DNA from: Pseudomonadota bacterium
Lineage (GTDB): Bacteria > Pseudomonadota > Gammaproteobacteria > Ga0077536
Assembly (NCBI GenBank): GCA_036130055.1
Contig: JAYYOR010000005.1
Coordinates: 2,533 to 66,532, forward strand
DNA: 64,000 bases
Reading direction: 5' to 3'
Shown piece by piece: positions 10,438 to 33,101 of this stretch; position 1 is the first letter of the stretch; each line of letters opens with the position of its first letter. Under the pieces are notes generated by a model. The model had not been told where the DNA came from, did no database searches, and saw nothing but the letters and a program-made list of their open reading frames with translations. The position numbers and the translations under genes were made by a program.

Positions 10438-12252
10438 CTATTGCTGACGCCTACGGGCTCTCTCCTCTCTGGTAGCATCAAAGTCAACTGAGAGAGAATT
10501 CTGATCTGATTTTAAGATAACTCCATAAACTTCAGAGGCTCTTTCCGCAGTTTCCCATCTTTGCTCAACGTCTTTCAAAACCCTAGCAGGATCCCTGTCT
10601 AAAGGATCACCATAACCTCCGCCGCCTGCATCAAATCCTTGAATCCACTCGCCCGGTTTTAATTCGCATTCAGCTACTCCCGGTAATTTCTCTTTGGTGC
10701 CGCAGGCTTTTATTTTGTATGTTTGAGCTGGCGGACCAGAGTGGCCACCTTGCACACCTTGTGGCGCATTTATGTGAGCGTCACACATTGTGACAACAGT
10801 CATGGGATCAAATCTAGGACCATACATAACGTCAGCACCTGGGGCTCCACGAAACTCGCCGGCTCCACCACCACCTGGGATCACACGCATATGCTTGACC
10901 AAAATAGGATGTTTAGATTCCTCGACCTCTACAGAACCTCTGTACATTAACCCCGCTGCAACCGGCAGACCGTAATTCAACCAGCCATCTGATGTTGGAG
11001 TACCGGGGCCGCCGTTTACCACAAGCCACTCCTGGTTGATATAAGGCGCTCCTCCAAAGCGTCTATCCTTTCCCGATATCACCGCAGCACCTATGCCCAT
11101 ACCCATACTGCCCTCAGCCAGACCATATCCTTTTCCGAACTCAGCAAATGCCGCTTGAGTTGCGTTAACAATTCTATCGCCAATATTTGTAGTCGCCATC
11201 GAACAACTCATTGGAAACTCAGGAATTCCAGTAACGCATCCCTCTCGTAGTTTAACGGAAACTCTTTTAAAACTTCCGGCGTTATGAGGCACGTCAGAAT
11301 CAATACAGTTAAACACACCACAAAGTGCATTGCTTGTCGCGCATGCAACCGACTCGTTCAGCCCAAATTCCTTGCTATCTTCATTTTTCGTGAGATCAAC
11401 TTCGATTTTTGCATTTTCTGGGTCAATTTCAACTGATACATTTATGGGCAAACCAACGGGAAGAGTTGGTTCCATAGGATCGTATACGGTTGTCTTACTA
11501 ACGGTACCAGATGGAAGCTTTTTGATAGCTTCAATCATTCTTTTTTCAGAGTAATTAAACCAATCCTCAATAAATTGCTTAATTTCTTCTTTGCCATACC
11601 GACTCACCAATTCTTTGAGTCTTCTTTCTCCTATCCTGGCCGCTCCAACAGTAGCAAGATAATCCCCATACCATTGATCTGGAACTCTAATACGCCTGCG
11701 ACACATTCGGATTATGTCCTCCACATCCTCGTAATTTTCCTGCACTTTTACACACGGAAAAATTAAAGCCCCTTCTTCGTAAACATCTTTGGCATAAGCA
11801 TGATAGGTGCTCGGAATAGAATTACCGCAATCGGCCTGATGAGCTTTCGCACAAGCAGTAAACATATGCTCACCATCAACAAAAACTGGAACCATATACA
11901 TGTGGTCTGCGGCATGAGTGTTCCCCATATATACATCATTATGCAAAAATGCATCTCCCTCTTTCAGATTAGGGTGCGTTTCAAGCAATGATGCTGTTTG
12001 CAAACTGCTTCCAAATATATGAACAGGGACTCCTTCACCTGGTGCTAAAAGTCTATTATCAGCAGTTACCAGTGAACAAGAAAAGTCTCTCACCACGGCC
12101 AGGACGGCTGAACGTGCCGTTCTTAATAAAGTGTTTGTCATCTCACCGACGATCGCATTTAAACGGTTTGCCAAGATCGCCATAAGAATGGGATCGGTTT
12201 TATAATTTCTTTCGGATGAGCTAGATGGCATTAGAACTCCTTTTATTAACAA
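10438..12252 (-). CDS. hyuB: Hydantoinase B / oxoprolinase family protein (HyuB; acetone-carboxylase-family subunit)
   Basis: Typical HyuB N-terminus (DPILMAILANRLNAIVGEMTNTLLRTARSAVLAVVRDFSCSL…) and length of about 600 aa. Confidence 0.8.
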   Translation of the reverse strand: MLIKGVLMPSSSSERNYKTDPILMAILANRLNAIVGEMTNTLLRTARSAVLAVVRDFSCSLVTADNRLLAPGEGVPVHIFGSSLQTASLLETHPNLKEGDAFLHNDVYMGNTHAADHMYMVPVFVDGEHMFTACAKAHQADCGNSIPSTYHAYAKDVYEEGALIFPCVKVQENYEDVEDIIRMCRRRIRVPDQWYGDYLATVGAARIGERRLKELVSRYGKEEIKQFIEDWFNYSEKRMIEAIKKLPSGTVSKTTVYDPMEPTLPVGLPINVSVEIDPENAKIEVDLTKNEDSKEFGLNESVACATSNALCGVFNCIDSDVPHNAGSFKRVSVKLREGCVTGIPEFPMSCSMATTNIGDRIVNATQAAFAEFGKGYGLAEGSMGMGIGAAVISGKDRRFGGAPYINQEWLVVNGGPGTPTSDGWLNYGLPVAAGLMYRGSVEVEESKHPILVKHMRVIPGGGGAGEFRGAPGADVMYGPRFDPMTVVTMCDAHINAPQGVQGGHSGPPAQTYKIKACGTKEKLPGVAECELKPGEWIQGFDAGGGGYGDPLDRDPARVLKDVEQRWETAERASEVYGVILKSDQNSLSVDFDATREERARRRQQ

Positions 12253-13201: not shown

Positions 13202-14533
13202 CTATCTATCTATTCTAATTCTAACAGTTGTACCCTTGGTGAGTTCACTCTCTAAATCGAGATACCATCCAAATCTATCTATAATTCTTTTTACTAAGTT
13301 TAGTCCGATCCCGTTACCTCGAGCAAAAGATGGCGGCGTATTATCATGCATTACTTCAAACAGTTGTTCTCTAGTCATGCCGATTCCACTATCGGAAACG
13401 GAAACACTATTTCCGCTAACTTTTACCACAACGCTACCTGAATCCGTGTACACGAATGCATTACGGATAATATTGCCAAAAATTATCGAGACGAGCTTTG
13501 GGGAATTATTAGTTACGAGAATTGTGTCTTCTTCCAAATTATACTCCAAAAGTTTGTCTCCAAAGATCAGTGAGCAGTTAGATATTTCCTGCTTAATAAT
13601 GTCATTAATAATGACTTCCTCTTTAATTAAAGCACCCTCATAGTCTCTCGCAAGAAGTAAAAGTACTTCTGTAAGTTCTTCCATATCAGTGCTTGCTCGC
13701 TCTATTTTTTCCACCAGAGACTTCTGAGCTTCGTTAAACGGGCGCTGCTTTTTTAGTGAGGAGAGCGCTATTTTAATTACTGTGAGTGGTGTACGCAATT
13801 CATGACTCGCTTCTCTTGTAAACGTACGTTCTCTTTCTATGGATGTATCAACTTTTCGAAGCAAATCATCAATAGCGCCCGCAAGCTGAAGGGTTTCCAA
13901 ATTGAGACGGCGAAATTTGAATTTTTCAAGAAACGCGTCTATTTGTGGTCTATCCAAGTCAATATTTTTTACAGTGCGAGCCAAAAGGATGACGGGGGAA
14001 ACTGCCCTTTGAATTAACACGTAAGTGGCCCAAGCGGAACTATATAAAAAAACTAATAAAATTGCTAAGGGGATAATACCAAAATAAGTAGCAAGTTCTC
14101 CAACATTATCCGCATCAAAAACTAGATATAAACGCGCATCTTGGTTTTCACTAACATGCACCACACCTCGATTGACCGGCGAGACAAAATCGTGAATACC
14201 GGGATCAAGGCCGTCGAACTCAGCCGGAACTTCTACACTATCTTTAGTGAATAAGTATCCGATCAAAGTATTGGTATTCGGAGGGGGAGTTTCTCGGTCA
14301 ATAGAGCTTCTTGACCAAAAATATTCTGCCTCTCTTTTTAAAGCTGAGACAATTAAGACTTCCCTTATAGCGAATTCCGCGATGTAAACTCCACCAACCG
14401 CAACGATACTAATAATTGTAAGTTGCAAAAGAAAAGCGCGTAATAAACTTTTATTGAGAGGATTTTCTTTCTTCATCAAGAGCTTCAAGTTTCCAACCGA
14501 CACTCGGAATAGTATGAATGAGTGGTCTTTCAA
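13202..14533 (-). CDS. Sensor histidine kinase (two TM helices and a periplasmic loop). The true start is probably at the internal MKKEN Met near 14476.
   Basis: H-box HELRTPL; C-terminal HATPase N/G-box motifs (NAFVYT, DSGIGM); two hydrophobic segments flank a roughly 100-aa loop. Confidence 0.8.
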   Translation of the reverse strand: MKDHSFILFRVSVGNLKLLMKKENPLNKSLLRAFLLQLTIISIVAVGGVYIAEFAIREVLIVSALKREAEYFWSRSSIDRETPPPNTNTLIGYLFTKDSVEVPAEFDGLDPGIHDFVSPVNRGVVHVSENQDARLYLVFDADNVGELATYFGIIPLAILLVFLYSSAWATYVLIQRAVSPVILLARTVKNIDLDRPQIDAFLEKFKFRRLNLETLQLAGAIDDLLRKVDTSIERERTFTREASHELRTPLTVIKIALSSLKKQRPFNEAQKSLVEKIERASTDMEELTEVLLLLARDYEGALIKEEVIINDIIKQEISNCSLIFGDKLLEYNLEEDTILVTNNSPKLVSIIFGNIIRNAFVYTDSGSVVVKVSGNSVSVSDSGIGMTREQLFEVMHDNTPPSFARGNGIGLNLVKRIIDRFGWYLDLESELTKGTTVRIRIDR

Positions 14534-15155
14534 AAGGCTTATCGACAGATTTCCTTAAAGCGTATATATGACTTCGTAGCGCGTCACTATCTGGTGGCGA
14601 GTCATTCCAAATAAATTTTTCAATTTCTTTTTTGTGAACAACTCCGGGAGACTCACTCATCAAAATAGAAAGAATCTTTCTGCAAATCGGTGTTAGCGTA
14701 ATTTCTTTACTATCTCTAACGACGCTTTGGGTGCTTTGACTAAAAGTTAGATCGGCTACCTGCAATATTTGGTTAACACCCTTTCCCTGCGTTCTTCTGA
14801 TCAAAGCTTTCAATCTTGCAGACAACTCTTCCAAATCAAAGGGTTTAAGCAGGTAGTCATCTGCCCCTACATCAAATCCCTGAAGTTTGTCTTCTAAAGT
14901 ATCCCGAGCGGTTAACATTAGAATAGGGCAAGTAACATCGTTTTCTACTCTGAGCTTCTTACAAACGGTTAAGCCATCAATGCCCGGTAACATAACGTCC
15001 AGCACTATGGCGTCATAAGAGTTCTCCCTACCAAGGTTATACCCTAAATTGCCGTTATCTGCGTAATCAATAACAAAGTTGTCCCGCTCGAGATGTTCTG
15101 CAACCATTTCTGCAATGTCTCTGTGATCTTCTACAAGTAAAATTTCATGCGACAT
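14451..15155 (-). CDS. OmpR-family response regulator, trimmed from the listed ORF to the MSHEILLVEDH start
   Basis: Receiver-domain residues (LLVEDH…D in VLDVMLPGIDG…K) and a winged-helix OmpR/PhoB-type C-terminus. The listed ORF carries a 40-codon N-terminal extension with no similarity. ATG chosen at 15153-15155. Confidence 0.85.
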   Translation of the reverse strand: MSHEILLVEDHRDIAEMVAEHLERDNFVIDYADNGNLGYNLGRENSYDAIVLDVMLPGIDGLTVCKKLRVENDVTCPILMLTARDTLEDKLQGFDVGADDYLLKPFDLEELSARLKALIRRTQGKGVNQILQVADLTFSQSTQSVVRDSKEITLTPICRKILSILMSESPGVVHKKEIEKFIWNDSPPDSDALRSHIYALRKSVDKPFERPLIHTIPSVGWKLEALDEERKSSQ

Positions 15156-15162
15156 AATTTTC

Positions 15163-16035
15163 CTAACTCGACAACTTGCCGCTTTTAATAAATTTAACCG
15201 TTGAATCAAAATTAATGATTGATTCATCAATCCAATGAAACATCCATGTTGCACCAATATTCTTAAAATCAGCAACCGGGGTTCCTTTAACTTTCTCCTG
15301 CCCCAATATTACACTCGCAACATAATCATATTGTGATGATTGCTGGGGCCCAAGATTTTTTTTTCCATATTCTATTACTTTCTCGAATTCTTGGTACGAA
15401 GGTAACCAGTGATTCCAACCTGGATTAACTACATCTTCTGATGGCCTTGAGACTGGGAAAACTCCGTTCCAATTCATAGAGCGCTTAAGTCCTGCAGTAG
15501 CTGGTAAAGTTGCAGCTATCCAAATTGGAAATCTAGGCTTTTGATATGCTATTGGATTAAATTGAACGTTATCTACTTTATAGTAATCACCCTGGAACTC
15601 AACTTTTTGTCCTGATGACAACCGGTCTATCAACGTTAAACTTTCATCAACCTTTTTCGCTCTTACCTTTGCTGACGAGTCTTCACCGAAAGCTGTGAAT
15701 TCAAACTCAGGCGGCTCACCCAGCCCTGCGCCAAAAATAACTCTCCCTTTGCTAAGATGATCAAGGGAAACTAGTTCTCGTGAGACTTTCCAAGGACGTC
15801 TTCTAGCCAATGGAGTCACAATAGGGCCCAGCGAGATCTTACTAGTGGCTGAGGCAATCGCTGCTAGCGCTACTATCGGGTCAACAGTATCCAACGCCTC
15901 ATTTCCAGTTATATTTATATGGTCCCAGAGGAAGAAACCGTCGAACCCAGAATTTTCCGCGAGTACCGCAAGCTCAACCAACTTATTAACGCACCCAAAA
16001 CTTCCAAAATTAGGGGAATAAACGGCATTTTTCAT
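15163..16035 (-). CDS. LLM-class (luciferase-like) flavin-dependent oxidoreductase, short form
   Basis: N-terminal luciferase-like monooxygenase pattern (…LAENSGFDGFFLWDH…). Confidence 0.7.
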   Translation of the reverse strand: MKNAVYSPNFGSFGCVNKLVELAVLAENSGFDGFFLWDHINITGNEALDTVDPIVALAAIASATSKISLGPIVTPLARRRPWKVSRELVSLDHLSKGRVIFGAGLGEPPEFEFTAFGEDSSAKVRAKKVDESLTLIDRLSSGQKVEFQGDYYKVDNVQFNPIAYQKPRFPIWIAATLPATAGLKRSMNWNGVFPVSRPSEDVVNPGWNHWLPSYQEFEKVIEYGKKNLGPQQSSQYDYVASVILGQEKVKGTPVADFKNIGATWMFHWIDESIINFDSTVKFIKSGKLSS

Positions 16036-16076
16036 GAATACTTTTTCCCTATTTTTTTACTAATTTAAAAATGAGT

Positions 16077-17309
16077 CTATCCCGCAGAGGCACTCTCCAC
16101 TCTTGTCAAATTTGATGGTTTGATTTTATCAGTAAACTCTGGCCAAACTTTTTCTGTTAACAACTCAAGACTTCTCATCAATGGCTTATGCGGCATGTGG
16201 TTGTAAATGAAGTGCCAAAAGTAGTCAACCGGATAAGTTTTCAATTCTTTTTCTAACTTTTTACATACCGTAGACGGACTACCATGAATACAAAGCCCTG
16301 CTTCAGACAATGATTCAAATGTGGCAGGCTTATCCCAAGGGCCTTGACCTGGATCAGCAATTGCCGCCCCGAATCCAAAAGGTACAAAAAAATTATTCCA
16401 TATAAATGAGCCAGCTTCTCGCGCAAGAGCCTCCGCCTCTTGGTCAGTATCCGCTACAATAATCTCTCGAGTGATCGCCATACCCCCGCCAAATTTCAGA
16501 TTTCGACCAGCAGCGGCAGCCGCCTCTTGACCGGCTCTAAAATGAGGGACGCAAATTTCAGGATGAGTAATGATAGTAATAGGCACGACATTTCTTTCCA
16601 TAGCCCATTTTATAGAACGTTCAGAGGTTGCAAAGGGCATAAACATATCCAACATTTTGTCTTCGTATAAGCCAGGTGCTATGCCAACTTGTCGAATTAT
16701 CCCGTCCTGATCGCATCCCTTTCCGTATTTATGAGCCACGTCTTTGGCTATCCAATTGATATTATCAGTCGGAATATTCCAATGTTTTCCTTTGTGCTCA
16801 AAAACATCGTTTTTCCATGCTTTCATTATAATTTCGAAGTGCTCCTCGAAAAGCTCCCTTTTTAATATTTCATAATCCTCACCTTCCGCAGGTTCGGCTA
16901 GGCCCGCTTTCTGGCCAATGACATTTACCCATCTAGGCTGATAACCCCTAGCAAACCCGGCGAATGCTCTACCCTTATTCATCTGGGACATCATTGCTAT
17001 ATCTTCAGCTAAATTAATTGGATTTCGAGACGGTAGTACGTTTCCGAGTTGACCAAATTTCATATTTTTGGTCTTGCTTCCGAAATAAACATTAAGCATT
17101 ACAGGGTTAGTGGATACCTCTTCACCCTCAACATGAAAATGATGCTCCGTGGTACCACAACCGTAGTACCCGTGTTCATCCGCATATTGGAGCTGCTCTG
17201 TTATTTCTTTCAACATTTCCTGGTAAAGGTCGGTACGTTTTCCTGCCATACCGGCCTCTATATCTTTTTTGCGCCCCACAGACGGTAAATAAAAAAGTCC
17301 TACCTCCAT
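16077..17309 (-). CDS. LLM-class flavin-dependent monooxygenase (SsuD/LuxA-like TIM barrel)
   Basis: 410 aa with a luciferase-like monooxygenase N-terminal signature (MEVGLFYLP…ADEHGYYGCGTTEHHF…). Confidence 0.7.
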   Translation of the reverse strand: MEVGLFYLPSVGRKKDIEAGMAGKRTDLYQEMLKEITEQLQYADEHGYYGCGTTEHHFHVEGEEVSTNPVMLNVYFGSKTKNMKFGQLGNVLPSRNPINLAEDIAMMSQMNKGRAFAGFARGYQPRWVNVIGQKAGLAEPAEGEDYEILKRELFEEHFEIIMKAWKNDVFEHKGKHWNIPTDNINWIAKDVAHKYGKGCDQDGIIRQVGIAPGLYEDKMLDMFMPFATSERSIKWAMERNVVPITIITHPEICVPHFRAGQEAAAAAGRNLKFGGGMAITREIIVADTDQEAEALAREAGSFIWNNFFVPFGFGAAIADPGQGPWDKPATFESLSEAGLCIHGSPSTVCKKLEKELKTYPVDYFWHFIYNHMPHKPLMRSLELLTEKVWPEFTDKIKPSNLTRVESASAG

Positions 17310-17443
17310 TATGAAATCCTCCGTGTCTCCTCAGTTTTGCAAAGCTTTCCTGAACCACCCCGAATATCACTACTATAAACGGTAAACGTCGCTCCAGTCT
17401 ATAAGAAATTCTCCTAACTATCATTAAAAACTAACAAAAATCG

Positions 17444-17836
17444 TTAGATTTTGGCCGCTACTGCCTCGACCTCAAACCTCCACTCCTTTTTAACTAGAGC
17501 TTTTACAAGCACCGCTGTAGAAGCAGGTCGCGAATCACCCAAAAACTTGGCTCGACTACTAGCAAAAAAAGGATAATCATCTTCGTTAATAAGATAAGCC
17601 GTTATTTTCACAATATCCTCAGGCTCCATATTGGCAGCCTTTACACATTGAATGAGATTATCCCATGCTTTATCAGACTCAAGCTGAGGGTCATCTGGCA
17701 ACGTCCCATCAGAATTTAGACCAATTTGTCCTGAGATATATAAAATATTTGCATTAGACGGAATTACTACGCAATGGTGATAAGCATTATTAAACGGTTT
17801 CACTATTGTGCTCGGATTAAATTTTTTTATTGTCAT
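17444..17836 (-). CDS. RidA/YjgF-family reactive-intermediate (enamine/imine) deaminase
   Basis: 130 aa with the characteristic RidA pattern (…HHCVVIPSNANILYISGQIGL…). Confidence 0.8.
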   Translation of the reverse strand: MTIKKFNPSTIVKPFNNAYHHCVVIPSNANILYISGQIGLNSDGTLPDDPQLESDKAWDNLIQCVKAANMEPEDIVKITAYLINEDDYPFFASSRAKFLGDSRPASTAVLVKALVKKEWRFEVEAVAAKI

Positions 17837-17993
17837 TATTATTACCTCTTTATATTAATACTTATGCTCACATGAAAAATTTATTTTTTTAATTATGGTA
17901 AACTTTTTTACTCGCTCCGTGGTATTTTAAAGACTGAACCATGTCAATTCTGTATACATTAGAATGACGAAAAAGTAAAAGGAGATCTTCATT

Positions 17994-18755
17994 ATGATTT
18001 CACTCAAAGACAAAGTAATTTTCGTCGCCGGCGGAAGCACAGGAATCGGCAGAGCCACGTCTCAAATTCTCTGTAAGAATGGTGCTAAAGTAATTATTGG
18101 AGATACCAATAAACAAGAAGGTGAAAATTTTTCGAAAGAGATGTCCTCTGTGGGAAATACTGTCGACTTTCATCTATTAGACGTTACAGATCTTGAAAGC
18201 GTGACAAACTGTTTAAACCAAATCATTAATAAATTCGGCAGGCTAGATGGTGCCTTCAATAACGCGGGTATAGAGGGCCCAACGGCAAAATCGTCTGACT
18301 ATAAGATAGATTCATGGCACAAAGTTTTGGGTATAAACCTGACAGGTGTTTTTAATTGCGCCAAAGCAGAAATTGATGTAATGATTAGTCAAAACAAACC
18401 TTGTAGCATTGTAAATACTGCCTCGATCGCTGGCTTGGTCGCGATTCCTGGTGCAGTCGGTTACAATAGTGCAAAACATGGAGTAATAGGTTTAACGAAA
18501 ACTTTAGCCTTAGAATTAGCGACAAAAAATATTCGGGTAAATGCAGTATGCCCAGGCTTTACGGAAAGTCCAATGCTAAATAGAGTAGCTGGAGCAAGTA
18601 AAAAAATCAGAGAGCAACTTTTTAAAAGCATTCCTATGGAACGTATAGCAAAACCCGAGGAAGTTGGAAATGCCGTCGCTTGGCTGTTATCTGACGAATC
18701 AAGCTATATTACAGGCATCGCTCTCCCTGTGGATGGGGGCTGGATGGCCCAATAA
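17994..18755 (+). CDS. SDR-family NAD(P)-dependent oxidoreductase
   Basis: TGxxxGxG (GGSTGIGRA), NNAG, and the catalytic YxxxK (YNSAKHG). A good RBS (AAGGAG) lies 8 nt upstream. Confidence 0.85.
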   Translation: MISLKDKVIFVAGGSTGIGRATSQILCKNGAKVIIGDTNKQEGENFSKEMSSVGNTVDFHLLDVTDLESVTNCLNQIINKFGRLDGAFNNAGIEGPTAKSSDYKIDSWHKVLGINLTGVFNCAKAEIDVMISQNKPCSIVNTASIAGLVAIPGAVGYNSAKHGVIGLTKTLALELATKNIRVNAVCPGFTESPMLNRVAGASKKIREQLFKSIPMERIAKPEEVGNAVAWLLSDESSYITGIALPVDGGWMAQ

Positions 18756-18776
18756 AGTTTTAAAAGGGATTGGTTT

Positions 18777-19583
18777 ATGGCGTCAAAAGATAATAAAACT
18801 AGGCTTGCTAAAATAGAGCCCTACTATGAGGCTTTAGGCGATGAAACAGAAGTCTTTACTTCTGCATACAACAATAAATTGCCGATACTTCTTAAAGGGC
18901 CTACGGGTTGTGGGAAAACTAGATTCGTGGAATATATGGCCTGGCGGCTGAAGCAAAGACTGATCACGGTAGCTTGTCATGATGATTTAACCTCGTCAGA
19001 TTTAATAGGCAGATATCTAGTAAAAGGAGGTCAAACAGAGTGGATTGATGGCCCACTAACCGAATCCGTGAGAAATGGTCATATATGTTATCTTGACGAA
19101 ATAGTCGAGGCTAGAAAAGACACAACTGTAGTCATTCATCCTCTTTGTGATGATCGAAGAATCCTGCCTATTGAAAAATTAGGAGAATTTCTAACCGCTC
19201 CCAGCGAGTTTTCCCTTGTCATCTCGTACAATCCAGGATACCAGTCAATTCTGAAAGATCTAAAAGCAAGCACGAGGCAAAGGTTCGTTGCCATAGAGTT
19301 TAATTATCCTACTGCAGAGATAGAATTAAAAATCTTGATGACAGAGAGTGAGATAAGTAAAGAAAATGGTGAAAAATTAATAAAATTTGGGCAAATGACA
19401 AGAAATTTAAAAGAGGCAGGTTTAGAGGAAGGAGCGAGCACAAGGTTGCTCGTAAATGCTGCAAAATTGATAGGAAGTGGTATCACACCAGATACGGCCA
19501 CGAATACCGCGATTGCTTTACCGTTAACTGATGATCCTGAGATGCTTTCTGCCTTGAATGAACTAAGTAGCTCGATTTTCTAA
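18777..19583 (+). CDS. MoxR-class AAA+ ATPase of the NorQ/CbbQ/NirQ type
   Basis: Walker A (LKGPTGCGKT), Walker B (ICYLDEIVEA), a length of 268 aa as in CbbQ/NorQ, and a partner VWA gene 8 nt downstream. Confidence 0.8.
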   Translation: MASKDNKTRLAKIEPYYEALGDETEVFTSAYNNKLPILLKGPTGCGKTRFVEYMAWRLKQRLITVACHDDLTSSDLIGRYLVKGGQTEWIDGPLTESVRNGHICYLDEIVEARKDTTVVIHPLCDDRRILPIEKLGEFLTAPSEFSLVISYNPGYQSILKDLKASTRQRFVAIEFNYPTAEIELKILMTESEISKENGEKLIKFGQMTRNLKEAGLEEGASTRLLVNAAKLIGSGITPDTATNTAIALPLTDDPEMLSALNELSSSIF

Positions 19584-19590
19584 TCCATAA

Positions 19591-21411
19591 ATGAACCAAA
19601 AAAACAAAGGATTAAGTATCGAAAATCAAAAGCGACCAAAAGATGAGAAGACTTGCGATTTTGACGAGGTTGCAGCGTTTTTAGCCTATTACGTAAAAGG
19701 ACTAGGGGGCTCGACTTGTAAATTAGATACCAACGAAATCTTCTACAGTGATTCCCAAACAATATATCTCCCAGAAACCTTGTCAATTGAATCTTCTAAA
19801 GAATTAAACAAAAAATTATTTCAAATAATAGCTTCTCATCTTTGGGCACAGAATTTTTACGAAACCTGGAATCATCGAGTTCTATCAAAAATTGAAGAGG
19901 CCCAGGACAATCAAGAACAACTGTTGAAAATCTTCTATCGTTTAGAATGCATCAGATTAGATTTTTGTCTTGCCAGAGACTTGCCTGGCCTGTGGCGACA
20001 GTATCACCCTTTTAGATCAAACGACAAACAAAATAACAAAATTTGGAATGATTGGAAAAACAACTGTGAGGTTTTATCTGATAAACACAGCTCTTCGTTT
20101 ACCTCATTTTCGTTAATTTCTAATTTTCTAAATCATCCACTGCCTAAACTTGAAATTTTTCAGCAGGAATTTCAAATACATAACCTAAGTGAAATTTTAA
20201 ACAATAGGGCGGCAGATCAACGCGAAGATTTTCGCGCTTCGCTCCAAAAACTTTTGGACGAAAAATTAGAAGAAAACAACAGTACAAGTGCGGCAGAAGA
20301 CAAAATTGAATTTGATAACGAGGCCAACAACGAGACAAACGGTGATAGCAAATATGAACTATCCTTAAATGGTGAAAAAATTGAAATTTCTCAAAATCTT
20401 TCAGAATCTATTGGGGCAATCATAAAAGACTTGGGGTTCCTGCCCGAGGAATACCTAAAACCTAATTCTAATGGGCGCTACACAGACCAACTTAGCAACC
20501 AAAATCATGAAGAAGAACAAACAAGTTCGAAAAAATCCATAAAAACTTTTTTTTATGATGAGTGGGACTGTACCACTCAATCCTATAAAAAATCTTTTTG
20601 CGAGTTAAATGAAGTGGATATCATAGAAGGTGATGATACCTTTACAAAAGATACCCTTGAGAAATATAAAAATAATTTAAGGTCAATTAAAAAAACCTTT
20701 GAGGCTATAATTGAAGAAAACTCAATACAAAAAAAACAAATTGATGGAGACCAACTTGATTATAATGCGATCATCGAAACCATGCCAGACCTTCTCATGG
20801 GGAATGAACTGAGTGAACATTTATATGCGCGGTATCAAACCAAAGAACGCAATATCGCTGTAATGTTCATGGTTGATATGAGTGGCTCAACACTTGGTTG
20901 GGTCAATGATGCAGAAAGAGAATCTTTAGTCCTTCTTTGTGAAGCGCTATCTTTGTTAGGTGACCGATACGCAATTTATGGATTTTCGGGCAGAACCAAC
21001 AAAAAATGCGAGGTCTATAAAATTAAAGAATTTGATCAACCATATAATTATTCAGTAAAAGGTCGAATAAGTGGAATAAGACCAAAAGCCTATACTAGAA
21101 TGGGTGTCGCCATAAGACACTTAGGGAAAAAGTTGCAAAACACGTGTGCAAAAACCAAATTATTGGTTACCTTGTCTGACGGACGGCCTGAAGACTATGG
21201 AGGTTACAAAGGGACTTATGGAATCGAAGATACCCGCAAAGCCTTGTTAGAAATTAAACGGCAGGGTATCAATCCTTTCTGCGTAACTATTGATAATGAG
21301 GCTCAGGAATATTTACCAAGAATGTACGGTAAGATTAACTACACCGTCATTGATGATGTAAAAAAGTTACCATACAAGGTCGCTGATATATATCGGAAGC
21401 TAACTTGCTAG
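19591..21411 (+). CDS. NorD/CbbO-like protein with a C-terminal von Willebrand factor A (VWA) domain
   Basis: C-terminal MIDAS motif (DMSGST … T … LSDGRPEDYGG); N-terminal region carries an …DTNEIFYSDSQTIYLPE… motif resembling NorD/CbbO; immediately follows the MoxR ATPase. Confidence 0.7.
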   Translation: MNQKNKGLSIENQKRPKDEKTCDFDEVAAFLAYYVKGLGGSTCKLDTNEIFYSDSQTIYLPETLSIESSKELNKKLFQIIASHLWAQNFYETWNHRVLSKIEEAQDNQEQLLKIFYRLECIRLDFCLARDLPGLWRQYHPFRSNDKQNNKIWNDWKNNCEVLSDKHSSSFTSFSLISNFLNHPLPKLEIFQQEFQIHNLSEILNNRAADQREDFRASLQKLLDEKLEENNSTSAAEDKIEFDNEANNETNGDSKYELSLNGEKIEISQNLSESIGAIIKDLGFLPEEYLKPNSNGRYTDQLSNQNHEEEQTSSKKSIKTFFYDEWDCTTQSYKKSFCELNEVDIIEGDDTFTKDTLEKYKNNLRSIKKTFEAIIEENSIQKKQIDGDQLDYNAIIETMPDLLMGNELSEHLYARYQTKERNIAVMFMVDMSGSTLGWVNDAERESLVLLCEALSLLGDRYAIYGFSGRTNKKCEVYKIKEFDQPYNYSVKGRISGIRPKAYTRMGVAIRHLGKKLQNTCAKTKLLVTLSDGRPEDYGGYKGTYGIEDTRKALLEIKRQGINPFCVTIDNEAQEYLPRMYGKINYTVIDDVKKLPYKVADIYRKLTC

Positions 21412-21428
21412 TATCAGGATGAATTGAA

Positions 21429-23390
21429 ATGTTTAATAGTTTATTGATTGCAAATCGTGGAGAGATCGCTTGCCGAATTATAAAAACCGCAAAAAAAATG
21501 GGGATTGAAACACATGCTATTTTTCATCAAAAAGATTTTACGAGTCCTCATAGAAAACAAGCCGATTATGCTCACGAAATATTAGGACAAAACCCAAATG
21601 CAGCATATTTAAATAGTGCGCAAATAATTTCGATTATTGAAGATGCAAAAATAGAAGCTGTTCATCCGGGGTATGGTTTCTTGTCAGAAGACAGCTCGTT
21701 CCCAAAGTTACTTGAAAAACATAGGATTTCCTATATCGGCCCCAGATCCGAGAGCGTAGCGCTTATGGGTGACAAAATAGAAGCCTTAAATTATGCAAGA
21801 ACTCTTGATATCAGCACGCTAAGTAATGTGGTCCTTAAAAACTCGATAGACAAGTTTATCTCGGAGTGTAAGAAATTAAAATTCCCTATTATGCTTAAAT
21901 TATCCGGAGCCGGGGGAGGAAGAGGAATAAAAATAATTGATGATCCGAAAGAAATAAAAAAAAATGTTATTGATTTGAACAAAGAAAAGGAGCGAAACTT
22001 TGGTTCAAGCAATATTTTTGCTGAGGAATATATTGCAAACCCAAGACATATTGAAGTTCAAATTATTGGAGACGGTAACGGCAATATCCGCCACCTTTTT
22101 GAGCGAGAATGTAGTATCCAACGAAGATATCAGAAGATCATCGAAGAGACTCCAGCTCAACATCTTTCACCTGAACTGAGAAAAAAACTCTGCGAAGATG
22201 CTTGTAAATTAGCCGGCTCCATGAACTATTTAGGCGTTGGGACGGTTGAATTTTTACTTATGGGAGACAATTCAGACCGATATTTCTTTCTTGAAATGAA
22301 CACAAGAATTCAAGTAGAACACGGAGTAACAGAGGAAGTTTGTTCACTAGATTTAGTTGAAAAGCAAATTGAAATCGCCTATTCGAAAAAGTTTGACTTC
22401 GAGCAAAAAGACATCAAAGCAAAGGGGCACGCAATTGAAGCGAGAATTTGTTGTGAGGCATTTGACGCAAACTTCACTCCCCGAATTGGGAAAATTGAAT
22501 ATCTTAGACTCCCTAACCAGCCAAATATTAGAGTAGATTTTGGAGCAAATGCAGGACAAAGGATCACCCCTGACTTCGACTCAATGATTGGAAAACTTAT
22601 AAGCTACGGCAGAAACAGAGCAGAGGCTATCGACGAACTGATAATTGGATTATCTCAAATAACAATACTTGGATGCGAAACTAATATTAACGCTCTAAAG
22701 TCAATCCTAAGAATTGAGGACTTTGCTTCTAATCAAATTATTACGACAAATTTTGTCAAAGATAACATGGCCAGAATATTGGATGAATCTAATACCCCTA
22801 CTCATGAAGAAATTGCCGTAGCCACGTTGTTAGTTTTAAAAAACGACTATGTTTTGTCGCGCTCTGAATCAAATCAAAAGATATTTGGTTGGCAAAACCG
22901 TGTAAATTCGGTGATATTGTTGGATAAACAAAAGCGAGAAATAGAGGTAAAAATTGAACAAATCTATCCAGAAATTGTATTAATGATTTCAAATACAAAA
23001 ACCCTAAAAATCCCATCCTACGAGTTTTCTAATGAAAATCTAAAAGTTAACATTAACGACGAATCAAATTCCTGTAAATATCAAATATTTGAGAATCAGC
23101 TACACATTAAATTTAAAGGAAACCATCGATATTTTGAACTACCTATTGTCGAGTTGAAATCTAACTCTAACCCGGAACTTAATAAATCCATTAAAGCAGA
23201 TATGCCAGGTACAGTAATAGCAATCAAGACAAAACAAGGAGCCCAGATAAAAAACGGAGAAGTATTGATGGTAGTGGAATCCATGAAAATTCAGACCAAT
23301 ATAACTAGCAAAGTAAATGGTACTATCAAAAAAATATATTACTCAGAAAATGAAAGTTTCGAACGTGGTTCGATTTTAATTTCACTGTAA
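21429..23390 (+). CDS. Biotin-dependent acyl-CoA carboxylase alpha subunit (biotin carboxylase plus C-terminal BCCP lipoyl-like domain), MCC/GCC type
   Basis: ATP-grasp biotin carboxylase core (…HPGYGFLSE…, …EMNTRIQVEHGVTE…) and a C-terminal biotinyl domain with the lysine in VVESMKIQ. Length of 653 aa is like methylcrotonyl-/geranyl-CoA carboxylase alpha. Confidence 0.85.
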   Translation: MFNSLLIANRGEIACRIIKTAKKMGIETHAIFHQKDFTSPHRKQADYAHEILGQNPNAAYLNSAQIISIIEDAKIEAVHPGYGFLSEDSSFPKLLEKHRISYIGPRSESVALMGDKIEALNYARTLDISTLSNVVLKNSIDKFISECKKLKFPIMLKLSGAGGGRGIKIIDDPKEIKKNVIDLNKEKERNFGSSNIFAEEYIANPRHIEVQIIGDGNGNIRHLFERECSIQRRYQKIIEETPAQHLSPELRKKLCEDACKLAGSMNYLGVGTVEFLLMGDNSDRYFFLEMNTRIQVEHGVTEEVCSLDLVEKQIEIAYSKKFDFEQKDIKAKGHAIEARICCEAFDANFTPRIGKIEYLRLPNQPNIRVDFGANAGQRITPDFDSMIGKLISYGRNRAEAIDELIIGLSQITILGCETNINALKSILRIEDFASNQIITTNFVKDNMARILDESNTPTHEEIAVATLLVLKNDYVLSRSESNQKIFGWQNRVNSVILLDKQKREIEVKIEQIYPEIVLMISNTKTLKIPSYEFSNENLKVNINDESNSCKYQIFENQLHIKFKGNHRYFELPIVELKSNSNPELNKSIKADMPGTVIAIKTKQGAQIKNGEVLMVVESMKIQTNITSKVNGTIKKIYYSENESFERGSILISL

Positions 23391-23402
23391 GCGAGCCCGA
23401 CT

Positions 23403-25010
23403 ATGAACATTATAAAAACTTCTATAAACACTTCTTCTGATGAATTTATGAGTAATTATAAATTCAATAAAAAAATGGTTGAGGACTTCAGATTTCGCCA
23501 GGAAAAATCAAGGTCAAAAAGAAATGTCAAAGATATAAAAAGGGTGAAGTCTCAGGGAAAAATGCTACCAAGAGAACGCATTTCGCTTTTGTTGGACAAA
23601 GGTTCCCCATTTCTCGAATTATCCTCTCTTGCTGCATGCGAAGCTTATGAGGGACAAGCGCCACTTGCGTCTTGCATTGTAGGTATAGGAATTATCAAAG
23701 GTAAGCACATTCTTATAATTGCTAACGATCCAACAGTGAAAGGTGGCGCATGGTTTCCTTTAACTGTTAAAAAGATTGTCAGGGCTTTGGATATAGCAAT
23801 TGAAAATCATTTACCGGTTGTCCACTTATGCGACAGTGCGGGGGGATTTCTGCCGCTGCAAGCAGAACTCTTCGCCGATAAAGAGCATGCTGGAAGAATG
23901 TTTCGTAACCAATGTATTCTGTCCAAATTAGGAATAAAACAACTCGCTATAGTTTTTGGTCATTGCACGGCAGGAGGAGCCTACGTCCCAGCGCTATCTG
24001 ATTACTCAATTATTGTAAAAGGAACCGGAGCTGTATTTTTAGCTGGACCGCCTTTAGTAAAGGCAGCTACTGGTGAAAATGTCACGGCAGAAGAGCTCGG
24101 TGGAGCTGAATTGCATACCCAAAAAAGTGGAACTTGTGATTACGCAGCTGAAAACGAACATCACGCAGTCGAAATTGGCCGTGAGATAGTTGAATGTTGG
24201 ACAGATAATCCTTTATCAATAAAACCAAAAACTAATGTAAAAGATCCTTATTACCCGACCAGTGAGCTATACGGAATCATCCCAAACGATATAAAAAAAG
24301 GTTATGACAGTAGAGAAATATTAGCAAGAATTGTAGACGGCAGTGGTTTTCATGAATTTCAACCTGACTATGGAAAAACACTTATTTGCGGATATGCGTA
24401 CATTTGGGGGTACAAAGTCGGCATATTGGCCAACAACGGCGTTCTATTTAATGAAAGCGCTCTTAAAGGGGCGCATTTCATTCAGCTATGTGATAGAAAC
24501 ATTACACCTATACTTTTCCTTCAAAACATTACAGGGTTTATGGTGGGAAAAGAATACGAGCGACAGGGAATAACAAAAGATGGTGCAAAATTCCTAATGG
24601 CACAGGTCGGTTGCTCGGTACCTAAAATCACTTTAATGTGTAACGGATCTTTTGGCGCAGGCAATTATGCTATGTGCGGAAGGGCTTTCGATAGTAGATT
24701 TATCTTCTCCTGGCCCAATCATCAAATAGGAATTATGGGTGGGGAACAAGCTGCTAAAACTTTAGTAGAGGTAAAAGAAAGACAGCTAAAAAAGGCAAAT
24801 AAGAGCATCAAACAAAAAGACTTAGACCTTATCTACCAAAACACTCTTACTGGATTTAAAGAACAAATGTCAGCTTATCATGCAACTAGCCAACTCTGGG
24901 ATGATGGCATCATTGATCCGCTCGACACAAGAAGCTGCTTGGGGATGGTTCTAACAGTTATTAGTAAGTCTAAGTTCAAAGATATAGGCTATGGTGTAAT
25001 GAGATTCTAG
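23403..25010 (+). CDS. Acyl-CoA carboxylase carboxyltransferase beta subunit (methylcrotonyl-CoA carboxylase beta-like)
   Basis: Alignable by eye along its length with MCCB (LPRERISLLLDKGSPFLELS…, IIANDPTVKGGAWFP…, HLCDSAGGFLP…, GHCTAGGAYVPA…, FLAGPPLVKAATGE…). Confidence 0.85.
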   Translation: MNIIKTSINTSSDEFMSNYKFNKKMVEDFRFRQEKSRSKRNVKDIKRVKSQGKMLPRERISLLLDKGSPFLELSSLAACEAYEGQAPLASCIVGIGIIKGKHILIIANDPTVKGGAWFPLTVKKIVRALDIAIENHLPVVHLCDSAGGFLPLQAELFADKEHAGRMFRNQCILSKLGIKQLAIVFGHCTAGGAYVPALSDYSIIVKGTGAVFLAGPPLVKAATGENVTAEELGGAELHTQKSGTCDYAAENEHHAVEIGREIVECWTDNPLSIKPKTNVKDPYYPTSELYGIIPNDIKKGYDSREILARIVDGSGFHEFQPDYGKTLICGYAYIWGYKVGILANNGVLFNESALKGAHFIQLCDRNITPILFLQNITGFMVGKEYERQGITKDGAKFLMAQVGCSVPKITLMCNGSFGAGNYAMCGRAFDSRFIFSWPNHQIGIMGGEQAAKTLVEVKERQLKKANKSIKQKDLDLIYQNTLTGFKEQMSAYHATSQLWDDGIIDPLDTRSCLGMVLTVISKSKFKDIGYGVMRF

Positions 25011-25011
25011 T

Positions 25012-26595
25012 CTACACCTTAACCTGTAGTGCACGCTCAACTGCCGCAATCTCCTCTATTTTTGCTAACGTGAGCTCGTCCAACTCTTTAGAAACTGCTA
25101 GTACTGCTATAGCGAGCTGCATATTTTCGTGAACACCAACTTGCATTCGAGAAATGTTTATACCCATACGCCCTAAAATATCACCAAGAATCCCAATAAC
25201 CCCAGGTTGATCAGCATGCCAAGTTATCAAGAGTTGCCCCTCTAGTGGTGACTCAACAATATAATTATTAATTCTTGTAAGCCTTGAATGCCTACCATCA
25301 AACACACTCCCCTCTACGGTAATTGTTTGGTTTTCAGAAACCAATGAAACCTCAATTACTGAAACGTAATCTTTGGAATCAGATGATTTTATCTCAACCA
25401 CCTTGATTCCCTGCCTTTTCGCGAGCTGCTTGGCGTTAATTTGGTTTACGGGGACAGATAGCTGATTAGTTAAATATCCGATTAAAACAGAGCTTGTAAT
25501 CGGGTGGGAATCAAGATTATTGACCTCTCCATAACTGCTCACTTTTATGGAAGAAACACTCCCTGTAGACATCGCATTTAGCAATACCCCGAGTTTCCTT
25601 CCTAATTCAATAAACGGCAAAAACTGAGCTTCCTTACCTTGATCTATACTTGGAACATTAACTGCATTAATAACTTGTCCTTTTATTAAATAGGAGGCTA
25701 GGTTGTGAGCTATCTCAACCCCCACTGCCGTCTGGGCTTCGTGTGTTGAGGCGCCCAAATGCGGAGTAAATTGAATTTTGTCACATTTAAACAAAGGGCT
25801 ATCCCCCGGGGGCTCATTTTCAAATACATCCAACGCCGCACCAGCCAACTGGTCATTTTGAACAGCATCCAATAAAGCATTCTCATCGATCAATCCGCCT
25901 CTAGCACAATTTATAATGTGAGCTCCTTTTTTCATCAGTCTGATTTTATCAGAGTCAAGAATATTTTTTGTGTCCTCGGTAACTGGACAGTGGAGGCTGA
26001 CATAATCTGATTCGGTTAGCAAAGAATCCAAATCCATCTTATTGATATTATGACTTTTAAAAGTTTCCTCTGTAACGAAAGGGTCAAAACCTAAAACTCT
26101 CATACCTAAACCGACACACTTTTCTGCAAACAATCGTCCTATTGTACCAAAGCCGATGATCCCAACAGTTTTACCTGTTAGCTCGATTCCCAAAAAGTTG
26201 TTTCTTTCCCAAAGTCCAGAGCGGACTGAGTGATCCGCTCTAGGCAGGCTTCTACTTAAGGAAAACATGTGAGCCACTGCCAACTCTGCTGTTGTTGTAG
26301 CATTTGCATCGGGTGTGTTGAGCACCACTATACCTCTTTCAGTCGAGACATCTAGGTCAATATTGTCGACACCAATGCCTGCTCTTCCAATGACTTTTAC
26401 CCTATCTGCTTCTTCTAGCAGCATACCTTTCATTTTGGTAGCACTACGTACAATTACTCCATCGGCATCTTTTACGTATTTTTTTGCCTCTTCGGGAGAC
26501 AATCCAGGTTTAAATATAATCTCTAGCTCTGGATATTGCTTTAAAGCATCTATACCCTCTTGAGCTAATTCATCTGCTACGAATACTTTAAACAT
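25012..26595 (-). CDS. serA: D-3-phosphoglycerate dehydrogenase, long form with C-terminal ACT domain
   Basis: 2-hydroxyacid dehydrogenase NAD-binding motif (GIIGFGTIGRL); a length of 527 aa with a C-terminal regulatory domain; adjacent to serC. Confidence 0.85.
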   Translation of the reverse strand: MFKVFVADELAQEGIDALKQYPELEIIFKPGLSPEEAKKYVKDADGVIVRSATKMKGMLLEEADRVKVIGRAGIGVDNIDLDVSTERGIVVLNTPDANATTTAELAVAHMFSLSRSLPRADHSVRSGLWERNNFLGIELTGKTVGIIGFGTIGRLFAEKCVGLGMRVLGFDPFVTEETFKSHNINKMDLDSLLTESDYVSLHCPVTEDTKNILDSDKIRLMKKGAHIINCARGGLIDENALLDAVQNDQLAGAALDVFENEPPGDSPLFKCDKIQFTPHLGASTHEAQTAVGVEIAHNLASYLIKGQVINAVNVPSIDQGKEAQFLPFIELGRKLGVLLNAMSTGSVSSIKVSSYGEVNNLDSHPITSSVLIGYLTNQLSVPVNQINAKQLAKRQGIKVVEIKSSDSKDYVSVIEVSLVSENQTITVEGSVFDGRHSRLTRINNYIVESPLEGQLLITWHADQPGVIGILGDILGRMGINISRMQVGVHENMQLAIAVLAVSKELDELTLAKIEEIAAVERALQVKV

Positions 26596-32261: not shown

Positions 32262-33101
32262 TTATCGGTATACAATTTTTTTGACCTTTCCTTCTGACAT
32301 AGAGCCTAGAACCACTTTGTCAAAACTCCTTGTCTCATTCAGTGCCATTTCTGCTATATCAACACCATCAGCGAGCTCTTTTTTTGAATCTACCATATTA
32401 ATAAGCGGAATGATTTTGACTCTCTCTAAATTTCTTAAAAAACCATCCTTCGATACCATTAATTTGACAATCTTTTCTTTCGTTATGATACATGCCGGTG
32501 ATGCCTTCCAAAGCTTGCATAGCTCAGCAACTCGATGAGCGATTTCTGGTGTTAATCTCTCTCCTAGGGCTTTAATAGAAAGAATCGGTATTACTAAATC
32601 ACAAGCACTAGGGATAACTGGTTCTTTTTGATTTGGCCCTTTAATCAATTTAGATCGAGCACCATCGGCCTTACAAAACATAAAATCAAATTTCTTTGAA
32701 AACCAAATTTTACTTAATTCAGCGTCTGTCAGACCGGCAACACGCCCGCTTTTATTAGATTTTTTTTTAAAAGCAATAACCCTATTAGTCGAACTCAGCG
32801 GATCATAATCATCATTATTAAGATCAACGACTCTGTCAACATAAGCTCTTTTATAATCGAACATCTGAGTAGTTGAAGACAATGCGACCCGGCCCGTAAC
32901 AAATTTACTTAAAGCATACATGGTAGACTTTTTCCCACCAGCACCAATAAACGAAATGAATCCTTTTGTAGATTCTAAAAACACGTTCACAATAAAACTA
33001 TCCTCACAATCTGAAAGTGATTTAATTAAATTATTAATATAGAATACAGAATTAAAAAGAAATAAAAAAATAGATTTAGTTTCAAGTGGAAGTTTATACA
33101 A
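32262..33101 (-). CDS. P-loop protein, possibly a YqeC-like (selenium-dependent Mo-hydroxylase accessory) family member
   Basis: GAGGKKST P-loop near residue 55; a downstream …SSTTQM… and …CKADGA… pattern is reminiscent of YqeC-type proteins. Weak assignment. The listed start overlaps the divergent LLM gene, so the true start is probably internal. Confidence 0.3.
   Translation of the reverse strand: MYKLPLETKSIFLFLFNSVFYINNLIKSLSDCEDSFIVNVFLESTKGFISFIGAGGKKSTMYALSKFVTGRVALSSTTQMFDYKRAYVDRVVDLNNDDYDPLSSTNRVIAFKKKSNKSGRVAGLTDAELSKIWFSKKFDFMFCKADGARSKLIKGPNQKEPVIPSACDLVIPILSIKALGERLTPEIAHRVAELCKLWKASPACIITKEKIVKLMVSKDGFLRNLERVKIIPLINMVDSKKELADGVDIAEMALNETRSFDKVVLGSMSEGKVKKIVYR

Follow-up and report, generated by a model that had tools for sequence, protein, structure and literature searches.

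The 64,000-nucleotide stretch of DNA analyzed here (the window), from a marine metagenome-assembled genome (MAG) of ~39% G+C, encodes a CbbQ/NirQ/NorQ-type MoxR AAA+ ATPase followed by a protein with a VWA domain, and this pair lies directly upstream of the two genes of a biotin-dependent acyl-CoA carboxylase. Comparison with related loci reveals the pair to be a self-contained, conserved two-gene unit, and its link to the carboxylase to be lineage-specific and derived. We consider it probable that the pair is an orphan module of the NorQD/CbbQO kind, placed beside the carboxylase through gene loss in a lineage with compact genomes. The carboxylase is probably not its dedicated client, because the string of genes that joins the two seems to have arisen by loss of the genes between them.

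Gene order around the pair and the carboxylase

The ATPase, VWA and carboxylase genes belong to a string of five plus-strand genes that ends at serA, which served as a control for housekeeping synteny:

17994-18755, plus strand: short-chain dehydrogenase/reductase (SDR) oxidoreductase, first gene of the string (Pfam adh_short_C2, 7e-65)
18777-19583, plus strand: CbbQ/NirQ/NorQ-type MoxR AAA+ ATPase, 268 aa (Pfam AAA_5, 1.4e-34, and CbbQ_C, 5.7e-27)
19591-21411, plus strand: partner protein with VWA domain and an adhesion site that depends on a metal ion (MIDAS), 606 aa (Pfam VWA, 2e-06, residues 424-583)
21429-23390, plus strand: fusion of biotin carboxylase (BC) and biotin carboxyl carrier protein (BCCP), the alpha subunit, 653 aa, ESMKI motif (Pfam Biotin_carb_N, CPSase_L_D2, Biotin_carb_C and Biotin_lipoyl)
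23403-25010, plus strand: carboxyltransferase (CT) of the methylcrotonyl-CoA carboxylase (MCC) beta type, the beta subunit, 535 aa (Pfam Carboxyl_trans, PF01039, 3e-130)
25012-26595, minus strand: serA, marking the end of the string (NCBIfam PGDH equivalog, 4e-176)

The five open reading frames (ORFs), their order and their families agree exactly with a preliminary description of this DNA, and the Pfam domains concur. That description also spoke of a tight operon with spacers of 22, 8, 18 and 13 nt. The genes are indeed closely spaced, but each figure is 1 nt too high (21, 7, 17 and 12 nt, with stop codons counted inside the genes), and the spacing is not exceptional. Tight packing is a genome-wide property, not peculiar to the five-gene string: coding density in the window is ~92%, convergent genes are separated by 1-8 nt (by 1 nt between the stop codons of the carboxyltransferase gene and serA, with serC also convergent downstream), and the median same-strand spacer is 20 nt. 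The spacing of the string is uninformative because of this median and this density. A promoter and terminator scan of 17300-25200 returned nothing above shuffled expectation.

To compare neighborhoods, as the preliminary description had proposed, one genome per GTDB species was searched, which gave 571 confirmed VWA loci; the best 80 of the 571 were kept, and loci from an exact-protein look-up were added, together with 80 metagenome loci retrieved with the sequence of LLM410, a luciferase-like monooxygenase (LLM) encoded upstream of the pair. The proteins of the window were mapped onto all loci (numbered L001 onward), which were grouped into 65 lineages by 85% VWA identity. Only three lineages besides that of the window, four of ~65 in all, have the carboxylase immediately beside the pair (21-52 nt), and the two are not co-conserved as neighbors across lineages. 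The abutting loci form one clade (L004/L005/L091/L092, L007/L096 and L008) and also carry the SDR gene upstream of the pair, a position at which SDR orthologues occur only in L004, L007, L008, L091-L093, L095 and L096. Five other lineages have the carboxylase further downstream of the pair, at distances of 1.0, 3.0, 6.2, 6.6 and ~9.8 kb. No carboxylase was found within 10 kb in five lineages of the clade linked to LLM410 (the LLM clade) that have full 10-kb flanks, namely the L006, L019, L020 and L023 groups and L021/L032, nor in any outgroup locus (~45 outgroup lineages).

The gene that follows the pair elsewhere is informative. In L001, L003, L006, L013, L017 and L018 the VWA gene is followed directly by an FAH-family gene on the opposite strand, and in L011, L014 and L033 no more than a short ORF or two separate them; the pair therefore ends its own transcription unit in all of these lineages. 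Where the interval was mapped (L001/L003 and L013), the FAH-family gene separates the pair from the carboxylase. Some loci also have, downstream of the pair, genes for an enoyl-CoA hydratase (ECH), for a protein of 912-940 aa and for GGDEF and CBS proteins, the last two being among the downstream genes in L014, L017 and L033. Other genes of these loci keep the same company: serA (syntenic in L001-L005, L007 and L008), serC, dnaE and the genes for an M48 peptidase and a molybdopterin oxidoreductase are syntenic in the same loci, and the shared gene order is thus largely a matter of common descent. The graded distances to the carboxylase, with an opposite-strand gene intervening, look like decaying synteny rather than a conserved operon.

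The carboxylase itself is, by its sequence, an MCC-type biotin-dependent acyl-CoA carboxylase with a beta subunit in the MCC-beta group. The best PDB match of the carboxyltransferase is 9tps (5.9e-173; entered there as a beta subunit of propionyl-CoA carboxylase), followed by human MCCB (2e-168), Mycobacterium tuberculosis AccD1 (6.5e-166), Pseudomonas aeruginosa MCC (1.6e-163) and geranyl-CoA carboxylase (GCC; 1e-141); the label "MCC/geranyl-CoA-carboxylase-like" given to it previously was apt, with GCC the weaker match. It resembles the MCC and GCC enzymes (PDB 8j4z, 3u9r and 5ikl) in that its beta subunit can be aligned over the full length with MCC beta chains (~1e-165), its alpha subunit combines a BC domain and a C-terminal BCCP domain with a length (653 aa) typical of MCC alpha, and a gene for an enoyl-CoA hydratase is found upstream in related loci, like liuC in liu clusters. 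It differs in that genes for isovaleryl-CoA dehydrogenase and HMG-CoA lyase are not nearby, in that the alpha subunit is split in sister lineages, and in its SMKI biotinylation motif, a conservative variant of AMKM that retains the invariant Met-Lys. The alpha subunit is a BC-BCCP fusion in the clade of the window and is split in L001 (positions 15098-17073), L003 and L013 into a BC of ~490 aa and a BCCP of 166-171 aa; in L008 the BC is likewise 490 aa. Across loci the alpha subunit (36-61% identity) diverges far faster than the beta subunit (63-82%).

In the preliminary description the carboxylase was held to be the only plausible client in the operon. As its dedicated activase, the pair would release an inhibitory ligand from the holoenzyme or aid its assembly or biotinylation. 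Direct adjacency on the same strand with spacers of 17 and 12 nt, the recurrence of this arrangement in L004, L005, L007, L008, L091, L092 and L096, and the analogy with Rubisco, the known CbbQO client and likewise a carboxylase, would all be in keeping with that proposal. The adjacency is confined to the one clade, however; elsewhere the two units are 1-9.8 kb apart, with the opposite-strand FAH-family gene between them where mapped, or the carboxylase is missing from the 10-kb flanks altogether (L006, L019-L025, L021/L032 and the ~45 outgroup lineages). Housekeeping genes are equally syntenic and tight spacing is the rule of this genome, while the link to LLM410 described below is wider. To our knowledge, MCC-type carboxylases in well-studied organisms function without such partners. 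We therefore regard a dedicated carboxylase activase as quite improbable.

Several observations nonetheless pull against an orphan module that gene loss has set beside the carboxylase. In the clade of the window the spacers around the pair and the carboxylase are only 7-21 nt with no terminator in between, and for this reason the two are, to judge from the sequence, almost certainly co-transcribed there. The compact arrangement persists down to 54% VWA identity (L008 and L095), so selection for co-expression is possible. A carboxylase lies within 10 kb in nine of ~16 LLM-clade lineages, which is above the level for a random gene, and the absence of a carboxylase within 10 kb does not mean a genome without one. 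The group of the window sits on a long branch of the neighbor-joining tree, so that the order of loss and gain is one that we infer.

The ATPase and its VWA partner

The ATPase belongs, by its domain content, to the CbbQ/GvpN/NorQ (CGN) subfamily of MoxR AAA+ proteins, since it combines an AAA_5 core (PF07728) with a CbbQ_C domain (PF08406). Its Walker A motif is intact (GPTGCGKT), its closest PDB matches are CsoCbbQ (5c3c, 1e-93), NorQ (9qhd, 4e-93) and Acidithiobacillus ferrooxidans CbbQ (6l1q, 1e-88), and it shares 65-86% identity with the ATPases of related loci. The CbbQ_C domain rules out assignment to CoxD/CoxE or another MoxR subfamily, so that the profile comparison proposed earlier came down on the side of CGN. 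Other MoxR subfamilies have CO dehydrogenase and methanol dehydrogenase as clients.

Residues 320-604 of the partner match the NorD VWA domain 9qhd_G (1e-47, phmmer against the PDB), and together with the ATPase matches this upholds the earlier assignment of a NorQ/NorD (CbbQ/CbbO)-type pair. The lengths of the two proteins (268 and 606 aa) and their Walker A and MIDAS motifs were reproduced in the ORFs, and each of the motifs quoted previously (LKGPTGCGKT, VDMSGST, SDGRPED, VVESMKIQ and IYLPE) is present in the translations. The MIDAS residues are invariant across 17 homologues (alignment A1). With the Walker and MIDAS residues intact, and the latter invariant among homologues, the pair is a bona fide, selectively maintained CbbQ/NorQ-VWA module.

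The N-terminal half of the partner is more distinctive. A Foldseek search with an AlphaFold2 model of moderate quality (predicted local distance difference test score 66.5) returned NorD VWA domains as top matches and otherwise only midasin MIDAS domains, and no PDB match to the N-terminal half was found by sequence or fold. True NorDs borne on rhizobial and roseobacter plasmids align to residues ~320-605 at ~33% identity (tblastn), and one norCBQD-encoded NorD aligns to residues 19-605 at 25% identity with a gappy N-terminal part (BLASTP), suggesting an N-domain whose relationship to the NorD one is distant at best. The family that shares it (residues 1-330) comprises 211 representatives at 50% identity clustering, mostly proteins of 690-760 aa. 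Homologues of the partner number 3364 and are named "NorD" in source databases. The IYLPE motif noted before is present, and an LYLP motif is kept across the partner family, with L60 and P61 invariant. The protein of the window lacks ~105 N-terminal residues of the usual 713-aa form, as do close relatives of 572-578 aa, which would fit the shortening of a gene as genomes become streamlined.

Both characterized relatives provide points of comparison. NorQ/NorD is a MoxR AAA+/VWA chaperone for the insertion of FeB into the nitric oxide (NO) reductase that depends on cytochrome c (cNOR; PDB 9qhd and 9qh6; PMC13036017, PMC9976466), and the pair resembles it in the architecture and sequence of the ATPase (4e-93), in its homologous VWA/MIDAS domain (1e-47, ~30-33% identity) and in its bicistronic order, Q then D. 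In contrast, norCB is not found in the window or in the mapped related neighborhoods (true norCBQD clusters occur only among distant plasmid matches), most pair relatives have a VWA protein of 713 aa against ~630 aa for NorD, and the host is represented by a marine MAG whose window bears no signs of denitrification. CbbQ/CbbO is a Rubisco activase (PMC4660213; PDB 5c3c and 6l1q). Its ATPases are equally close (1e-93 and 1e-88), and by analogy its Q6O1 complex with MIDAS-mediated client recognition would be a natural mechanistic model for the pair. The partner protein differs from CbbO in length, the only property compared, at 606 aa (713 aa in relatives) against ~770 aa.

It could be argued that the pair is a conventional NorQD or CbbQO module with its NO reductase or Rubisco encoded elsewhere in the genome, as the "NorD" names of its homologues and the alignment of the norCBQD-encoded NorD over residues 19-605 at 25% identity might suggest. 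The preliminary description had seen no Rubisco or NorB/NorC gene, and indeed no such domain, nor a COX1 domain, occurs among the ~50 ORFs of the window that were scanned; a six-frame search of the first 86 loci likewise returned no RbcL motif, and no cbbLS or cbbM linkage was seen in the window. Moreover, true NorDs match mostly the VWA half of the partner (~33% identity), the N-domain family is small and distinct (211 representatives), and the hosts include MAGs of marine heterotrophs with compact genomes. A conventional module is thus very improbable. A MoxR-VWA conflict or anti-phage system is effectively refuted: the ATPase resembles IetA (1.6e-06, the best PADLOC match) and two RtcR-type AAA models only weakly, at the level of the P-loop, PADLOC returned no match to the VWA protein, an effector or VMAP-like gene is absent, and the locus is stable and vertically inherited among metabolic genes.

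Upstream neighbors and other contexts of the pair

The genes on the other side of the pair have a wider distribution than the carboxylase. RidA, LLM410 and a second LLM (LLM290) lie divergently upstream, as previously described, and are accompanied by a two-component system:

13202-15275, minus strand: histidine kinase (HK) and OmpR-type response regulator (RR), accompanying LLM410 in most related loci (Pfam HisKA/HATPase_c and Response_reg/Trans_reg_C)
15163-16035, minus strand: LLM290, second luciferase-like oxidoreductase, kept in some related loci (Pfam Bac_luciferase, 1.7e-35)
16077-17309, minus strand: LLM410, luciferase-like flavin monooxygenase (Pfam Bac_luciferase)
17444-17836, minus strand: RidA-family protein, between LLM410 and the pair, in about half of related lineages (Pfam Ribonuc_L-PSP)
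17837-17993, unstranded: divergent intergenic region between the RidA and SDR genes; the equivalent region in relatives has promoter-like elements

LLM410 is the most consistently conserved neighbor of the pair. Its orthologues (69-97% identity) occur upstream of the pair in 15 lineages and the window, always divergent, and this best conserved neighbor (16 lineages) was overlooked when the carboxylase was singled out in the preliminary description. The protein resembles a Baeyer-Villiger enzyme, 3,6-diketocamphane monooxygenase, its best PDB match being 3,6-diketocamphane 1,6-monooxygenase (4uwm, 1e-21). The 408-410-aa orthologues carry a C-terminal tail of 10-13 residues (consensus ~PSNTxRVAxxA) that is lacking in paralogues of 397-401 aa (alignment A2), none of which (<=68% identity) adjoins the pair. 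The idea that this tail tracks the pair was dropped, as the alignments of several pair-less orthologues likewise reach the last residues of the query, and these proteins thus probably have the tail.

The intergenic region from which LLM410 and the pair diverge is also conserved in part. Upstream of cbbQ, relatives have a conserved promoter-like TATAGTGTCGG or TAAAGTCGGGCACAATG and a palindrome, TGTATACA. Between LLM410 and cbbQ in L019-L025 and L097-L102, GATTACTAC, the TGTATACA palindrome and TAAAGTCGGGCACAATG are conserved, and in RidA-type loci TATAGTGTCGG stands at the corresponding position of the divergent region. All four are candidate operator or promoter elements on the strength of their conservation, and their place just upstream of cbbQ would fit a pair that heads its own transcription unit. 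The comparison of intergenic motifs points to no particular client.

LLM410 might be considered as the client: a TIM-barrel enzyme that the pair would reactivate or mature, with the neighboring two-component system regulating both through the intergenic region that they share. The divergent arrangement holds in every lineage with at least 47% VWA identity and enough upstream flank, except L021/L032, and outlasts changes in the downstream context; in the same loci LLM410 is ~72% conserved against ~48% for the VWA protein, its paralogues are not beside the pair, and the palindrome and promoter-like elements are conserved between the two. An orthologous LLM adjoins a CobW/COG0523 GTPase gene in another lineage, where it may point to a need for a chaperone. 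The association is not reciprocal, however: on high-GC metagenome contigs (L126-L141) the pair is missing within 3-8 kb of orthologues of ~70% identity, and the proposal that LLM410 is always accompanied by the pair was rejected on these grounds. In addition, the clade with a cytochrome c gene described below shares its downstream order with L023 and L025 but lacks an upstream LLM, the pair is solitary in more distant relatives, and under neutral decay of gene order the nearest gene is expected to remain adjacent longest. We know of no flavin-dependent LLM that requires metal insertion or reactivation. On this evidence LLM410 as client is rather unlikely, although no gene nearby offers a better candidate; a client whose gene lies elsewhere in the genome is no less likely.

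The pair-less loci of LLM410 have neighbors of their own. In L127-L129, L131, L134, L135 and L140 the LLM gene diverges from one for a sigma-54 activator that contains a GAF domain. Genes for the CobW/COG0523 GTPase and a CN-hydrolase directly follow the LLM410 orthologue (70% identity) in L126 (9349-10698), L127 and L128; as a general hint of a need for a metallochaperone this was dropped, being restricted to three loci of one lineage. A PhnD-type ABC transporter is encoded upstream of the LLM, next to it in L126 and on the far side of the sigma-54 activator gene in L127 and L128.

In a neighbor-joining tree of 77 VWA proteins, context follows clade. The clade of the module is widespread, in Gammaproteobacteria, some Betaproteobacteria and Desulfobulbaceae, and is linked to neither Rubisco nor NO reductase. 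In a sister clade (L026-L028, L030, L031, L034, L037, L040 and L041) the pair is divergent from a gene for a cytochrome c of 212-318 aa (two CxxCH motifs in the L026 sequence that was inspected), with a UvrD/Rep helicase gene beyond in most loci. One of these loci, L028, has a downstream gene order in common with the LLM-type loci L023 and L025, and therefore the region upstream of the pair has been rearranged.

More distant relatives of the pair (~41-43% identity) in sulfur-oxidizing Gammaproteobacteria (Thiohalobacter, Sulfuricaulis and others) adjoin genes for QmoA-like, QmoB-like (MvhD/FlpD domain), HdrC-like and HdrB-like (CCG) proteins, divergently where all four are present:

3364-8445 of L043 (as an example), minus strand: qmoAB-hdrCB-like genes, found at L042-L044, L048, L054, L056, L058, L059, L064, L065, L076-L078 and L082

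No mention of a link between Qmo and the pair was found in the searchable literature. The L043 locus also holds, at 18140-21463, a ribonucleotide reductase large-subunit gene with a LAGLIDADG domain, probably an intein. In Desulfobulbaceae (L175:8180-11280 and L176:8123-11283) a VWA relative of 759-760 aa (31% identity) and its CbbQ are encoded on their own, flanked by the ffh-rpsP-rimM-trmD-rplS operon on one side and a MamS/MamX-like gene on the other; the VWA gene of L176 converges with a gene for a CCG-domain (HdrB-like) protein. One 760-aa member of this group, P0415, was considered as a true CbbO and set aside, since its family consists of solitary Desulfobulbaceae pairs beside ffh with no Rubisco link.

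Genes of flavin and acyl-CoA catabolism abound in the window. Four LLM genes fall within its 64 kb (15163-16035, 16077-17309, 33086-34123 and 42630-43670), together with genes for an acyl-CoA dehydrogenase, an AMP-dependent ligase, a CoA-transferase-like protein and an FMN-dependent dehydrogenase. The hyuB-like gene (Hydantoinase_B, 10438-12252, minus strand) is at the position reported before; a hyuA-like gene (Hydantoinase_A, 59684-61759, plus strand) lies ~47 kb away on the opposite strand, which is not the usual adjacent pair.

Proposed history, mechanism and implications

The order of genes in other LLM-linked lineages suggests an ancestral arrangement in which HK-RR-(LLM290)-LLM410-(RidA) was divergent from cbbQ-VWA, and in which the pair would have been followed by a convergent FAH-family gene and, some kilobases further on, by an ECH-BC-BCCP-CT carboxylase cluster. 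In the compact, low-GC lineage of the window the intervening genes would then have been lost and an SDR gene gained upstream of the pair, giving rise to an apparent operon of five genes. The apparent "carboxylase activase" is thus explained most simply by gene loss joining two unrelated units.

On this reconstruction, positions 18777-21411 would constitute an autonomous MoxR-type remodelling module, formed by a CbbQ/NorQ-type ATPase and a VWA protein with a family-specific N-domain. By homology with CbbQO and NorQD, one VWA protein may dock on a CbbQ hexamer, the MIDAS ion of the VWA protein may bind an acidic residue on the client protein, and ATP hydrolysis may then remodel the client such that a tightly bound ligand is released or the insertion of a cofactor or metal is allowed. 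The Q6O1 complex, client recognition through the MIDAS and ATP-driven remodelling are those described for CbbQO and NorQD (PMC4660213, PMC13036017).

That the pair serves as an ATP-driven activase or maturase dedicated to an adjacent metabolic enzyme, neither Rubisco nor NO reductase, is a tentative possibility, under which LLM410 would be a likelier candidate than the MCC-type carboxylase; the larger share of the probability falls to a client other than the carboxylase, LLM410, Rubisco or cNOR. A search of the literature found no link of CbbQ, NorQ or MoxR to an acyl-CoA carboxylase, a biotin carboxylase, an LLM or Qmo, and the earlier statement that an AAA+/VWA activase for a biotin-dependent carboxylase is undescribed holds for the searchable literature. 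Few clients of CbbQ/NorQ-type MoxR-VWA machines are known to us (Rubisco and cNOR).

If the client does prove to be an adjacent enzyme, it would represent a new client class for the CbbQ/NorQ-type MoxR-VWA machines. The clade without Rubisco or NO reductase, found also beside qmoAB-hdrCB-like genes, could be a family of client-switching remodellers. The locus cautions against over-reading operon-like spacing in streamlined genomes, and the large clade of pairs without a Rubisco or NO reductase link, spread across marine heterotrophs, sulfur oxidizers and Desulfobulbaceae, provides a concrete target for a client search.

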